From assembly GCA_021807125.1 (NCBI GenBank), contig JAKAPK010000002.1, positions 140,253-204,252 of the forward strand: a DNA stretch of 64,000 nt. Direction: 5' to 3'. Position 1 is the first letter of the stretch; each line of letters opens with the position of its first letter. A program made the position numbers and the translations under genes. The DNA comes from Nanobdellota archaeon. GTDB taxonomy: Archaea > Nanobdellota > Nanobdellia > Parvarchaeales > Parvarchaeaceae. The notes below the pieces were generated by a model, which was not told the DNA's origin, did not search any database, and worked only from the letters and a program-made list of their open reading frames with translations. Shown here piece after piece: positions 473-48,388 of this stretch.

Positions 473-1768
473 TTAATACGTTGAATTCGATAACTTGGTT
501 TCTAGAGCAGATATGTATGACAGGCTGCACACTGGCGCAGAATTATTTATAAGAGAGCATATCTGGGCTGTTAATATGTTAGTGGCGCCGAGAACGCTCT
601 CGCCCCATGAACCCTGTGCTGGGTTCTGCATTGAAGCGAGCATTTGCTGCTGTGTTGCAGAAGAAGTATCGTATATACTGAATGCCTGGTTCGGATTTAC
701 TGTAGCCCCGTCGAATACGTACTGGTTGTTTATGTCCATGAACGGCACACCGCCGAATTGGAAATTGTTTATACCGAATCCATCATATTTGCCTGCTAGC
801 GATTTCGTAGCAAAACTTAATACTTCACTTTGTATAACCAAGGGCAAGCCTGTAGAATTCATGAAAAATGAGGAACCTGCCTCGTCAAAAGGTTCAAAGT
901 TAATATAATTAGAAGTATAATACGCACCTGTAAAGAGCCCTGTGGCTACTTGATCACCGCCTGGTGCTACGGCCTGCCCATTTTGGTACACTGGAGAAAT
1001 GCTAACTGACTTTGAGTAAACGCTATCTGAGAAATTAAAAGTAAACGTCGGTATATTATAGTCGTTGGTCGCCGATCTATCATAGAAAAGTTGGCTGAAG
1101 TTACCAAACCTACTAAGCGTAGCTATAAACACATAACGTTGCTGCGCACAAAACGGACAACCCTGTGCACCTATATAAACAAGGCCGACTTTTCCGTTCG
1201 ATTCCAAATGCGGTACACTCGCGTTAGACGGCACTCTGAGAGGGATGACATCATAGTTATTGTCCGGCATTACGAGCACACAGTATCCTGGAAGAGGGCC
1301 CTGCTGCGTAGTTTGGGACGCAAAGCACTGCACATTTCCACTAAGTTGCTGTTCGCCAACAGACTGAAGCTGCGCGGACAGATTTGAAAACACGTCTATC
1401 GAACTCGAGGCACTCTGCCCTATCGGGCCCTGAAAGAAATCTGCTGAGGTAACCGGTGTTATCGGTTTTGAAAGGTTAAGTATATTATAAGGGCCGAAAA
1501 CCAGCCAAAGCACGACTCCGGAGATTATTACTATCCCTATTATGGATGCAAGTATGCGGTTTTCTACCTTGAATAAGCTGTTCTGTTTTTTCAGGACTGA
1601 TTCTTCTTTTACAAGTTCTTTTGGTGCGGATACTTCTTTATGAAGCAATGCCTTTTCCGCTATTATTTCTTTGCCCTCTTCCTCTGCTATTTTTTCAAGA
1701 GCGTGCAGTCTTTTTTCATTTTCTTCAAGCTTGTTTAATATCTTGTCGAGCTTGTTTTCGATATCCAT
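473..1768 (-). CDS. DUF929-family membrane-anchored thioredoxin-like protein with N-terminal coiled coil
   Basis: GAQGCPFCAQQRY...LSRFGNFS...IPTFTF resembles the DUF929 signature; one TM (ILASIIGIVIISGVVLWLVFG). Start moved to MDIENK (1768) because the longer ORF overlaps the RNase P RNA. Confidence 0.75.
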   Translation of the reverse strand: MDIENKLDKILNKLEENEKRLHALEKIAEEEGKEIIAEKALLHKEVSAPKELVKEESVLKKQNSLFKVENRILASIIGIVIISGVVLWLVFGPYNILNLSKPITPVTSADFFQGPIGQSASSSIDVFSNLSAQLQSVGEQQLSGNVQCFASQTTQQGPLPGYCVLVMPDNNYDVIPLRVPSNASVPHLESNGKVGLVYIGAQGCPFCAQQRYVFIATLSRFGNFSQLFYDRSATNDYNIPTFTFNFSDSVYSKSVSISPVYQNGQAVAPGGDQVATGLFTGAYYTSNYINFEPFDEAGSSFFMNSTGLPLVIQSEVLSFATKSLAGKYDGFGINNFQFGGVPFMDINNQYVFDGATVNPNQAFSIYDTSSATQQQMLASMQNPAQGSWGESVLGATNILTAQICSLINNSAPVCSLSYISALETKLSNSTY

Positions 1769-1810
1769 CCATAGTCTATATTTCTTTAGTTTATAAATGT
1801 TATTAGAATA

Positions 1811-2091
1811 TGTGGTGCTGAATAGCCCGTTTTCTGTCGCATTTCGACCAGATTTTACTGGCGTCATTATAATGTGCTACAGCATTCGACTAAGCGCCGG
1901 AAAACCGGTTTGCACCGCGTGCTCCGCCGTTTCATCCTTTACGTCTGCACTCTGCTTTCGCTTCATGGTTGTATGCAGATAAAAGGTTCGTTTCTGTGCG
2001 GTTCGCTACACTTTTGTGTACCACATTGCTATGGACGCTTTTTACGTGAACGGACTTCCTCCTTTAATGGTCTGCTGTATACAGCACCACA
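1811..2091 (-). ncRNA. rnpB: RNase P RNA
   Basis: Minus strand has P1 (UGUGGUGCUG/CAGCACCACA), P2 (UACAGCA/UGCUGUA), P4 (GAGGAAGUCCGUU/AACGGGC), and the conserved ACAGAAA, GGAUGAAACG, GGUGCAA, CGCUUAGUCGAAUG and ACAGAAAACGGGCUAUU segments in the correct order. Confidence 0.93.
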
Positions 2092-2152
2092 TTAATATTG
2101 CAGAAAAGTCTGATATTTATGCTTACAAATTCAAAAAACGCTTACAAGGATT

Positions 2153-2437
2153 ATGGCTATAGATATTATTCCATTAGAAAGATTAAGGAAAAACAACAAA
2201 TTCGATAGAGGGGTCAGCCTAGTAAACAAAGTTAAATCAGACTATCAAACGTCAAAACACATATCTTTTATTGTTGAAAGCGAAAATGGAACGCACAATG
2301 TCATGTATTTCAATGAGAAGGAAGGTGAATTAAAGTGGCAGTGTGACTGCAAGTGGTATACCCTTCAGAATAAATTATGCTCGCACATAATCGCCGTTAA
2401 TCTGTTTCTTATGAAAGGAAAGCATGGTCATGCATAA
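2153..2437 (+). CDS. SWIM zinc-finger protein
   Basis: WQCDCKWY...LCSHIIAV fits the CxC-x(n)-CxH SWIM motif. Confidence 0.8.
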   Translation: MAIDIIPLERLRKNNKFDRGVSLVNKVKSDYQTSKHISFIVESENGTHNVMYFNEKEGELKWQCDCKWYTLQNKLCSHIIAVNLFLMKGKHGHA

Positions 2438-20884: not shown

Positions 20885-21310
20885 TTACCTCTGATTCTTT
20901 GCGACCTTGTCCACGAAAGCTATGCCTTTCGGTGTTATTAGGCGGCCATAATGGTTACCTACCTTTGCTTTCTTTATAAATTGTGCCGCTTCCAACTGTT
21001 GAAGTATCTTTCTTATTATGGCGCCGCCTGCTAGCTTAAAATGTTTGCCTGCGTAAGTATTTTTTGTTTTGTTACCATAAGTTGTCCTTAGCCTGTTGAC
21101 TCCAAGCGGTTTATGATCCACATAAAATCTTCTAAGTATGCCCGCGCCTCTCAAAAACCACCAATCCCTTTGGGAAGGTATTCTATCATTAGCTGGTCCT
21201 GTTTTTACAAATTGCGACCACACTGGTGCGGAAAGAATCTTGTCTTTCTTTAACTCTTCGGCCATAGCCAAAGTAAGTTTTCCCTGTTCTACGTCAAATC
21301 CTCTTATCAT
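20885..21310 (-). CDS. rps19e: 30S ribosomal protein S19e
   Basis: PVWSQFVKTG, DWWFLRGA, GGAIIRKILQQLE, GRLITPKG. Confidence 0.96.
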   Translation of the reverse strand: MIRGFDVEQGKLTLAMAEELKKDKILSAPVWSQFVKTGPANDRIPSQRDWWFLRGAGILRRFYVDHKPLGVNRLRTTYGNKTKNTYAGKHFKLAGGAIIRKILQQLEAAQFIKKAKVGNHYGRLITPKGIAFVDKVAKNQR

Positions 21311-21596
21311 AACCTAATTTTTTTGTTTTCCCGCAATTTAGGCACTTGTAATCGAGCATGCCCGATTTAAGCCTAACAACCGCGGTCTTGCCGGGTATAA
21401 GTAATGTATTGCATTTTTTACATATTAAAAGCTTTTCATTCTTTTCAAGCCTCAATTTCTTTGACAATATAAGCCTCCTTGCTATGTAAGAATACCTAAG
21501 AGAAAGGGCCCTGTGACTGTCGTAAGTCTCTCTGGCCATTCCAACGAGCTTGTGCAAGTCTTCCTTGAAAATCTTCGAATTTTTTGTGTATATCAT
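21294..21596 (-). CDS. rnp4: RNase P protein Rpp21
   Basis: ICKKCNTLLIPG...YKCLNCG zinc ribbon; canonical position before rps19e. Confidence 0.88.
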   Translation of the reverse strand: MIYTKNSKIFKEDLHKLVGMARETYDSHRALSLRYSYIARRLILSKKLRLEKNEKLLICKKCNTLLIPGKTAVVRLKSGMLDYKCLNCGKTKKLGYDKRI

Positions 21597-25016: not shown

Positions 25017-25100
25017 GGGCCGGTAGTCCAACGGCAAGACGCCACGTTCGCATTAATACGAAAATCGTGGAGACTTCGGGTTCAAATCCCGACCGGTCCA
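25017..25100 (+). tRNA. tRNA-Ala(CGC) with 12-nt intron at 37/38 (25053-25064)
   Basis: Acceptor GGGCCGG/CCGGTCC carries the G3:U70 Ala determinant; anticodon stem CCACG/CGTGG; TTCG pairs with intron CGAA in a BHB-type motif; T arm TCGGG-TTCAAAT-CCCGA. Confidence 0.92.
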
Positions 25101-45488: not shown

Positions 45489-48388
45489 GGACTGTATGGT
45501 TGCTAAAAATTTTGACCTATTAGTAATCGTACGCTGAAAACCTCGGCTTTCGCCTTAGTTCTTACACGTCGATTCTATCAACGGGGTCTTCTTCCCCCGG
45601 CCTTAACGGTGCCTCTTTTTACGGAGGGTTTCAAGCTTAGATGCATTCAGCTCTTATCCCTTAACGCGTGGCAACGCGGCGTGCCCTGTCGGACAACCGC
45701 TAACTAGAGGCGTCGACTCGCTGTTCCTTTCGTACTAGTCGAATCTTCCATTCAAGCACCGAACACCTCCACTAGTTAAATACCGGCCTGCCTCGCGGCG
45801 GCCTGAACTCAGCTCACGGTCCCCTTTAACCAGTGAACACCTGTACCCTTGGCTGCTTATGCACAACCAGGATGGGAAGAGCCAAAGACTGTGGAGCAAG
45901 CTGCGAAGTCAATATGAACTATCATCCGCAACAACTCTCTTACGCCCAGGGTAGCTTTTCTGTCATACGAAGGAATCAAAAAGATACGCATTCGTGTTCG
46001 CTATGCCCGGCTTTCGCCTCTGTGCGCCTTGCTATGCAGCGCGCAGTCAAGCCATCTTTTGCCATTGCACTTAACAGCGGATTTCTATACCGCTTAAGAT
46101 GACCTTTGGGCTCCCATGATATCTTTTCGTGGGATTGCCACCCCAGCAAAACTGCCCATCTCCTGCTGTTCCCAGCGGGTAAGCGATATAAAACAGCGAA
46201 GGTAGTGTTACACTTTCGACTATCCCGCCCCCGAAAGAGCGGACATAACGTCTCCTACCTACTCTATGTTCGTTATTTTAGTACCGCAACAAGAGACTGC
46301 AGTAAAGTTCCTGGGGTCTTTTTGACCCAGTGGAGGTCCCTGGCCTTTGCACCAGGACGGTAGTTTCGCGGGTTTCCAAGTAGGGACAGTGGGAATCTCA
46401 TTACATCGTTCACAAGCCAACAATCAATTGGCAATGGATTATGCTTGCTTAAGAAGGTCACAGTTACCTCCGCCGCTAACAGGTCCTTATATCCGTTGGA
46501 ACGAACTTTCGGATACCTGTGCTGGGCAGATGTCGCCGGCTGTACTAAAGATTGCTCTCTCGCAGCCAGCTATGCCTTTGGTAAACAGTTAGACTCCCCT
46601 TGTCACTGCGCCCTGATTTAGCTTTTTAGACCAAACCAGGGATCCTTTCTCGCGAACTTACAGGACTAATTTGCCGATTTCCCTTACTCGGTTTAAAACC
46701 CACACCTTAGCCTTCTTAGCCAGCGCACCTGTGTCAGTTTTCGGTACGGTCACTGTGGCCCATAACTGATAATTTTTCATGGGGACAAAGAATCTACGGA
46801 CGTATTGCTACGTTATACAAACTTCCGCATCTTCTCGACATTACGTCTCTCGAATGCGTCGAAAGTATATGTGATCTGACAGGACCACTCCGCATATCTC
46901 TATCCGTATACCAGATAAGACCACCGTGGTTGTGGGATATTAACCACATTCCCATTTGTCGAGCACCTTTCGATGCAAAACTTAGGACCGACTAACCCTT
47001 GTTAGATAAGCTTAAACAAGGAACCCTTGCGCATGCGGTGGAAGGGATTCTCACCCTTCTATTTGCTACACCTCGCAGGCTTCTCAATACCTAAAGATCC
47101 AGTTCTCCTCACGAAGAACCTTCTAGTCCATAGGCACGCCCCTCTACCATCTCCTTTTGGGAGATCATGAGTTTCGGCAGTCTGCTTAGCCCCGTCCATT
47201 TTAGGGTCATCAAATCTAGGTTGGTAAGTTATAACACACTTTTTAAAGGATGGCCACTTCTGAGCCTACCTCCCAACTGTTTTAGAATTAATTTCCCTTC
47301 TACGCACTTAGTAGACATTTAAGGGCCTTAACTCATGGCCAGGTTTTTTCCTTTGAGGTATACAACTTTACGCCATATACCCAACTTATACACTATGCCG
47401 TATTGGTATTCTGAGTTTGACTGTGCAGTGGGACCTTTCGGTCCCCACCTGCATAATCAGTATCTTTACCCCCAACAAAGCAGCGTATAAGCTATCCTGT
47501 GGGATATTTCGAGGGGAACCAGCTATCGCCGCGTACGATTGGTTTTTCGCCCCTATACGCATATCAACGGAGGAGATAGTTCCCCACCCGGTCGGGCCTC
47601 CATGGGGAGTAATCCCCACTTCGCCCTGCACACGTATAGATCACGCGGCTTCGGGTATTATACACATGACTAGCGGCAGTTTCCTACCGACATCGTTAGA
47701 CGATGTTCGCTTTCGCTTCGACTTCCCTTTTCGGTTAGCCTTGCCATGTACATAAACTCCCTGCCCCTTTATGCTAAAAGGATGTTGCAACACTTGAGCG
47801 CACTTATTTATTCATGCGTTCACAACGCGCCGCAACAACTATGACTACCAGATTTCAGGATCTTTTTACCCTCTCGTCGAGAGTGCTTTTCAACATTCGC
47901 TCACGCTACTATACTCTATCGGTTTCGGGACGTATTTAGAGTTGGATGTTTTTGCCACCCATATTCGCAGAAGAGTCTCGACCTCTGCTACTCAACGCGA
48001 TGATTATGTAATTAAAACTTACGAGGCTGTCACTCTCTTTGGCATGACATTCCAGTCAACTTTGATTTTTCTTACACAATCATTTACCGCACCACATCTT
48101 CGCATTGCTGCGAATTCGGATCGCTCTCTTCCCTTTTCGCTCGCCGTTACTAAGGGAATCTTTATTAATTTCTTTTCCTGCAGGTACTAAAATGTTTTAA
48201 TTCCCTGCGTTCCTCTTCCCATCTTGCGACGGGAATCCGTGCATACGCACGGGCTTCACGCATTCAGAAACGACGTGATCGACAGCCGTGTGCGCCTACC
48301 ACGTCATTATCGCAACTTGCTGCGTCCTTCTTCAGCGCCCGAACCAAGTCATCCCTCTGGTAGCTTGGTGTAGACAACCATACAGTCC
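45489..48388 (-). rRNA. rrl: 23S rRNA (unlinked)
   Basis: Domain order recognisable, with P-loop CUGGGG, A-loop UGUUC, sarcin-ricin AGUACGAAAGGA and AAGACCCC; ends bracketed by a perfect 14-bp inverted repeat; about 2.9 kb. Confidence 0.97.

Follow-up and report, generated by a model that had tools for sequence, protein, structure and literature searches.

The question raised by this locus, positions 1812 to 2090 of the window (the whole stretch of 64,000 nucleotides analysed here), is whether it encodes a working RNase P RNA and, if so, to which of the known structural types that RNA belongs. A sequence-only reading had placed such an RNA here beneath spurious open reading frames (ORFs), and had described it as a mosaic that keeps P8 and has lost P6, P16 and P17.

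The gene and its surroundings

When the whole window is searched with Rfam cmscan, an Infernal check that had been proposed beforehand, the archaeal family RNaseP_arch (RF00373) is matched on the minus strand with 108.9 bits and an E-value of 1.6e-29, above the gathering score of 84 and over the full model (positions 1-288). The two plus-strand ORFs that lie over the RNA (1797..1982 and 1874..2095, of 61 and 73 aa) have no Pfam match, so that the view of an RNase P RNA beneath spurious ORFs is borne out. The locus is confirmed as a genuine archaeal RNase P RNA gene, and it is the sole copy in the genome (653 kb in 7 contigs, ~79% complete). The gene and the element upstream of it are located as follows:

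1812..2090, minus strand: RNase P RNA gene, 279 nt long (a window position equals 2091 minus the number of the RNA nucleotide)
2113..2120, minus strand: TATA-like box ATAAATAT, located 23-30 nt upstream of the first RNA nucleotide

The conserved regions CR-I to CR-V (GGAAGUCC, ACAGAAACG, GAUGAAACGG, GCUUAGUCGAAUG and ACAGAAAACGGGCUA) follow each other in order and are invariant in all 22 RNAs compared from the genus. A comparable A/T box (TTATTAAAT or TATTAATA) is found at an equal distance upstream in all congeners and may serve as the promoter. The gene is flanked by those of a 94-aa SWIM zinc-finger protein (2153-2437, plus strand) and of a DUF929 membrane-anchored protein (473-1768, minus strand). 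The 464-aa ORF of the latter meets the RNA gene only when begun at its first ATG (1867); a start at Met34 (1768) leaves a gap of 43 nt and is the likelier one, since the first ATG falls inside the RNA gene.

Architecture of the RNA

Besides the shortage of positions at P15 described below, two oddities are apparent in the Rfam alignment: P3 is nearly nil, and an insertion of 36 nt separates CR-V from the 3' strand of P2. A secondary structure was drawn on the sequence and tested on a MAFFT alignment of 22 RNAs of the same genus, with the following elements:

2082..2090, minus strand: 5' strand of P1, pairing with 1812-1820 (both-side changes in 4 of 9 pairs, 99.5% paired)
2073..2079, minus strand: 5' strand of P2, pairing with 1878-1884 (both-side changes in 4 of 7 pairs, 92.5% paired)
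2061..2070, minus strand: minimal P3, CC-AUUAAA-GG, 2 bp
2049..2056, minus strand: CR-I and 5' strand of P4, AGUCCGUU, RNA nucleotides 35-42, with the "universal" U at nucleotide 37 (window 2054)
2021..2034, minus strand: P8, CCAUA-GCAA-UGUGG, with a GNRA-type loop (compensatory in 5 of 5 pairs, 99% paired)
2007..2020, minus strand: P9, UACAC-AAAA-GUGUA (compensatory in 5 of 5 pairs, 87% paired)
1936..1986, minus strand: P12, carrying a box C/D-like kink-turn and lying between CR-II (1987-1997) and CR-III (1928-1935)
1896..1909, minus strand: P15, a closed hairpin, ACCGG-UUUU-CCGGC, 5 bp
1838..1876, minus strand: helix in the P19 position, 39 nt, with outer stem CACAUU/AAUGCG and inner stem GCCAG/CUGGU
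1824..1831, minus strand: 3' strand of P4, AACGGGCU, RNA nucleotides 260-267, overlapping the end of CR-V, ACAGAAAA (1830-1837)

When the structure is considered as a whole, standard pairs occupy 85% of the cells in the 22 RNAs, against 31-51% once the 3' partners have been shifted by 1-3 columns. Changes on both sides are seen in 45 of the 77 pairs, compared with 28.1 in shuffles, and none of 500 shuffles reaches the observed number. The specificity domain (S-domain) is complete, with P7-P12, both T-loop regions, and P8 and P9; in P10, both pairs show changes on both sides and 98% of cells are paired. The counts for P7 and P12 understate their pairing because MAFFT offsets both regions; in the window RNA itself, P7 (GCGU/ACGC) and P12 are well paired. 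The helices drawn in the sequence-only reading are thus present in the sequence, and a covariation alignment, made here within the genus, speaks for them, P8 and P9 in all five pairs each. Its description of P3 as minimal holds for 18 of the 22 genus members, which share CC-AUNAAA-GG, and fails for the other four, in which P3 is a hairpin of ~8 bp that is 15 nt longer.

As P2 is firmly supported, the inserted helix, lying 3' of P2 and 5' of CR-V, is in the position of P19. It is built of two stems, the outer one compensatory in 6 of 6 pairs (89% paired) and the inner one changed on both sides in 3 of 5 pairs (98% paired), again in the 22 genus RNAs.

The catalytic domain is also reduced around P15. 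Between J5/15 (GUGCAA) and J15/2 (GCUUAGUCGAAU), the window RNA has just 14 nt, all of them in the closed 5-bp hairpin, and the same interval measures 14-15 nt in 22 of 22 genus RNAs, with the form ACCGG-NNNN-CCGG(C/U). Rfam likewise aligns 5 nt to the 36 model positions that lie beyond the P15 stem. With such an interval, P16, P17 and the P6 pseudoknot are impossible; the earlier statement that only a closed CCGG-UUUU-CCGG hairpin follows GGUGCAA is therefore correct, and no alignment in which P16, P17 or P6 could form was obtained. The hairpin itself shows changes on both sides in 2 of 5 pairs (85% paired), including a compensatory change of CCGG to CUGG/CCAG in two congeners.

A further departure from the canonical form, which the sequence-only reading had overlooked, concerns P4, a continuous 8-bp helix (2049-2056 with 1824-1831). 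In this register of the sequence, U37, the equivalent of E. coli U69 and T. maritima U52, faces a G instead of being bulged, and past the U the bulged register would allow just 2 bp. The P4 sequence does not vary among the genus RNAs, and the pairing of the U therefore rests on comparison between families. In the family sample, described below, 29 families have canonical P4 (GAAAG-U-CCNCC / GGNGG-CUU), while 12 of the 42 families sampled for P4 have the continuous form, CR-I being one A shorter and CUUA being replaced by CUAU, with a few of these calls weak. The U position is paired as U·G in f1, f10 and f13, as U-A in f2, f19 and f28, and as C-G both in f16 and in one MAG of Woesearchaeota; inner P4 pairs covary across families too (G-C to A-U). 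The pairing is the most unexpected feature of the RNA. In the literature, the P4 uridine is described as universal and strictly conserved, as not stacked in P4, and as a ligand of the catalytic metal M1 (PMC3488217). The same work calls it "not irreplaceable", with U52C or deletion costing ~13-fold in model enzymes (PMC3488217). Set against this strict conservation, a paired uridine could mean weak catalysis. A U·G wobble might still present a metal site in the major groove or, alternatively, the U might flip out upon substrate binding.

Candidate binding sites for L7Ae are found in two helices. In P12, the kink-turn reads AUGAAGC-GAAA-GCAGAG in the window (AUGA-A-GC ... GC-A-GA) and AUGAUGC-GAAA-GCUGAU in congeners, and A125, U126, G127, A128, G139 and A140 are invariant in 22 of 22 RNAs. 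In P19, G226 and A227 (1864-1865) together with G246 and A247 (1844-1845) are invariant in the 22 RNAs and flank the inner stem. The resulting GA/GA motif, likewise overlooked in the sequence-only reading, is kink-turn-like, with 5 nt in the bulge on the 5' strand against the 3 nt of a standard kink-turn. Among 143 unique P19 segments, 14, which come from several families, share this geometry, and in each of them the bulge is 5 nt long; shuffled controls yield 0.85 on average and never more than 5. L7Ae binds P12 plus the P16-17 kink-turn in type A RNAs, and P12 alone in type M (PMC5499556). Here it would bind the P12 kink-turn, and probably also the kink-turn-like site in P19. Since the C-domain L7Ae site of type A lies in P16-17, which is lost here, the P19 motif could replace it; given the unusual length of the bulge, this replacement is put forward as a hypothesis.

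Protein subunits and tRNA substrates

The five protein subunits of archaeal RNase P (Pop5, Rpp30, Rpp29, Rpp21 and L7Ae) are all encoded in the genome:

Window 21294..21596, minus strand: Rpp21, 100 aa, with a CxxC...CxxC zinc ribbon (PF04032, 47.7 bits; cut-off 29.3)
Contig C7, in a Pop5-proteasome alpha-SBDS operon: Pop5, 109 aa (PF01900, 25 bits; cut-off 23)
Contig C3, amid ribosomal protein genes: Rpp29, 70 aa (PF01868, 39.2 bits)
Contig C1: L7Ae, 119 aa (PF01248, 88.8 bits)
Contig C7, 244230-244727, minus strand, outside the window: Rpp30, 165 aa, assigned by profile and fold comparison

The presence of Rpp21 in the window, which the sequence-only reading had taken as a sign of a working ribonucleoprotein, is upheld by the PF04032 match. 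Its gene overlaps the start of a gene for a ribosomal protein S19e-like protein (20885..21310) by 17 nt, and the two are therefore probably co-transcribed.

Rpp30 was harder to find. No Pfam match was obtained in the organism's own genome, and in the 26 genus genomes searched none exceeded the cut-off. The 571-aa ORFs that came up in this search had sub-threshold matches, are probably PHP-type proteins and were set aside. A protein of 165-167 aa is conserved in the genus, and its copies in two congeners match PF01876 over the C-terminal half of the profile (E 9e-5 and 0.004). The best PDB match of the profile built for the 165-aa protein is M. jannaschii Rpp30 (6k0a_C), and its AlphaFold2 model (pLDDT 87) has archaeal Rpp30 structures as all of its top seven Foldseek matches, with a TMq of 0.77 to 6k0b_C. 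By its predicted fold, the protein is a shortened Rpp30. Its gene lies apart from that of Pop5, unlike the usual archaeal operon. Samanta et al. 2016 do not name Parvarchaeota among the phyla with a full set of the five proteins, an omission that an undetectable Rpp30 would explain. A gene for HARP (PF08745) was not found in the genome.

As to the substrates, the 3'-CCA is encoded in none of the 25 tRNA genes found. Four tRNAs were reported by ARAGORN with "CCA", and in these the acceptor stem ends in CC followed by a discriminator A, with no encoded tail. Loss of L15 has been linked with the absence of encoded CCA in type M and in eukaryotes (PMC4919922), an association that the combination seen here fits. 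Within the window, an 84-nt tRNA at 25017-25100 on the plus strand (Rfam, 51.8 bits) was missed by ARAGORN; by eye, it is a tRNA-Ala(CGC) whose anticodon loop contains an intron of ~12 nt. The window also contains a 23S rRNA gene at 45504-48380 on the minus strand, whose 2877 nt compare with 2987 positions in the archaeal model and from which several internal segments are deleted; in the 64 kb, neither a 16S nor a 5S rRNA was reported.

Distribution, classification and significance

Reduction of P15 is not confined to this genus. A pattern composed of CR-III, J5/15, a P15 of 6-22 nt and J15/2 is found at no fewer than 120 loci in named genomes, at least, nearly all of them DPANN MAGs among the matches listed, and these matches bear the labels Woesearchaeota, Pacearchaeota, Nanoarchaeota, Micrarchaeota, Parvarchaeota and Iainarchaeota. 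One record, from a "Candidatus Parvarchaeum sp.", has P15, P19 and P4 motifs identical to those of the window RNA. The short-P15 RNAs form two groups. In the Micrarchaeota type, which resembles type M, CR-I and CR-II are 50-57 nt apart and P19 is absent; in the Nanoarchaeia type, which includes the window RNA, the distance of ~63-70 nt leaves room for P8 and P9, and P19 measures 20-40 nt.

Within the class Nanoarchaeia, 107 of 121 sampled genomes match RF00373 at E ≤ 1e-5, 77 of them above the Rfam cut-off. No match at this threshold was obtained in the other 14 (for instance G034, G051 and G090), which include near-complete genomes in a single contig or few contigs; there, the RNA has either been lost, as in Nanoarchaeum equitans, or become too divergent to detect. 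When one RNA was taken per family (45 families, with P15 anchors corrected manually), P15 was found to be 14 nt or shorter in ~41 of the 45. One family has a 28-nt P15 hairpin, and only f2 and f14 keep a P15-17 of ~56 nt. P19 is absent from f2 and f14, as well as from f8 and f16, whose P15 is short, and is present in ~38 of 40 short-P15 families, so that P15-17 and P19 are inversely associated (raw Fisher p ~0.007, uncorrected for phylogeny), which is suggestive. Two adjacent hairpins, P8 and P9, occur in most families, with a single one in a few (f10, f36), and a very short 5' region is common, implying a minimal P3. In an RNA of 235 nt from family f22 (L174) and its relatives, ~10 nt precede CR-I, too few to accommodate P2 and P3. 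The mosaic form proposed earlier, which keeps P8 and is without P6, P16 and P17, is thereby upheld as an architecture, though not as a peculiarity of the window, being the standard design of the genus as well as of most families within the class.

How does this architecture relate to the known types? Type A is defined by the presence of P8 and of P15-17/P6, and type M by the lack of P8, P16, P6 and the L15 loop (PMC4919922). The window RNA has P8, as in type A, and is without the L15 loop, P16, P17 and the P6 pseudoknot, as in type M; therefore, neither definition fits. Type T does not apply either, given that the S-domain is complete, Rpp21 is encoded and P15-17 is missing. With type A (Pyrococcus, Methanothermobacter and most of RF00373), it shares the full S-domain (P7, P8, P9, P10/11, P12, CR-II/III), the helix order, CR-I to CR-V and RF00373 as the top-scoring Rfam family. 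It differs in having no L15, P16, P17, P6 pseudoknot or P16-17 kink-turn (KT1), and in the addition of P19. With type M (Methanococcales and Archaeoglobus, with M. jannaschii 6k0a/6k0b), it shares a closed P15 with no CCA-binding L15 loop, P16, P17 or P6, as well as one or more L7Ae kink-turns in P12, dependence on five proteins and tRNA genes without CCA. The differences from type M are a P8 with a GNRA loop, P19, a 2-bp P3 and a paired P4 uridine, together with proteins shorter than those of M. jannaschii (Rpp30 of 165 against 232 aa, Rpp29 of 70 against 95 aa). Type T (Pyrobaculum) likewise has miniaturised proteins, its Rpp30 being a partial TIM barrel of 180 aa, and the 165 and 70 aa of Rpp30 and Rpp29 here are below the 180 and 84 aa of Pyrobaculum. 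However, in type T it is Rpp21 and the bulk of the S-domain that are gone, and P15-17/P6 is kept, the reverse of the window RNA.

Outside the archaea, P16, P17 and P6 are independently absent from bacterial type B and eukaryal RNase P RNAs, in which P19 precedes J19/4 (CR-V), and the eukaryal RNAs keep P8 and P9 and have no CCA-binding loop. The window RNA is without P5.1, P10.1 and P15.1 of type B and without the enlarged P3 of the eukaryal RNAs. The likeness is best regarded as one of analogy, not membership, and Rfam scores the window RNA as archaeal. PMC13022451 refers to J19/4 in the human H1 RNA.

A paper of August 2026 recognises types A, M and T alone (PMC13462272), and no description of RNase P RNA structure in DPANN was found in the searchable literature; within that literature and up to that date, the structure had not already been classified for this lineage. 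An assignment to ordinary type M, by which it would be classified after all, can appeal to the closed P15, the absence of P16, P17 and P6, the P12 kink-turn and the lack of encoded CCA. It is nevertheless unlikely, as type M is by definition without P8 (PMC4919922), a helix that is compensatory here in 5 of 5 pairs; moreover, neither a P19 helix nor a paired P4 uridine is described for type M, and the Micrarchaeota RNAs that do resemble it form a separate group. One might also suppose that the type A architecture is compressed instead of lost, with a vestigial P6 surviving as a pairing of the P15 loop UUUU with J5/7 (GUAAAAA). Four A-U pairs can be drawn in this way in the window RNA and in one congener (L014), but only 2-3 contiguous pairs in the other nine distinct variants of the genus; the loop varies (UAUU, AAUU) without matching changes in J5/7, P15 loops of 3-7 nt across the class have no common sequence, and a 4-nt loop wholly within the helix would make the contact sterically implausible. 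As the pairing is not conserved across the genus variants, this very improbable possibility was rejected.

A more radical alternative is that the gene is a decaying relic, tRNA 5' ends being made without RNase P as in Nanoarchaeum equitans. The 14 of 121 genomes of the same class without a detectable RNase P RNA and the loss of the bulge at the catalytic P4 uridine are compatible with such decay, yet compensatory substitutions are abundant across the genus, CR-I to CR-V are invariant, the five protein subunits are all retained and the promoter-like box is conserved, leaving this explanation with hardly any probability. Instead, the locus very probably supplies the catalytic RNA for an RNase P of ribonucleoprotein type, which takes 5' leaders off pre-tRNAs in a Parvarchaeales-like DPANN archaeon. 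The RNA would be a functional housekeeping ribozyme in a structural variant that is lineage-wide and undescribed. A bolder proposal is that Parvarchaeales-type DPANN possess a fourth archaeal class of RNase P, and the chances that all of its features hold jointly may be put slightly short of even. Its RNA would combine a type A-like S-domain (P8/P9) with the absence of L15, P16, P17 and P6 and with a paired P4 U; in addition, a kink-turn-like motif in P19 would relocate the C-domain L7Ae site, and Rpp30 and Rpp29 would be miniaturised.

In the window RNA, the catalytic domain is pared down, with a 2-bp P3 and a closed 5-bp P15, and the covarying two-part helix in the P19 position is added to it. 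The enzyme would not base-pair with the 3'-CCA of the tRNA; the S-domain with Rpp21-Rpp29 would read the tRNA elbow, and Pop5 with the miniaturised Rpp30 would hold the C-domain together.

Few ribozymes are universal. RNase P RNA is among them, and its structural classes (bacterial A/B, archaeal A/M/T and eukaryal) ground ideas on how RNA has been traded for protein. In the class Nanoarchaeia, which makes up a large share of archaeal diversity, the CCA-binding P15-17 module has been lost, P8 kept and P19 gained, and this loss is separate from those known in type M archaeal, Gram-positive bacterial and eukaryotic RNAs. There are also consequences for annotation, given that 30 of the 107 matched RNAs of the class score below the Rfam cut-off and that an Rpp30 escaping Pfam can make RNase P seem incomplete. 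If the fourth class is real, a P4 uridine position paired as U·G, U-A or C-G would imply a different positioning of the catalytic metal. Finally, the Parvarchaeales-like subset with a paired P4 uridine provides natural variants with which to test the need for an unstacked U.
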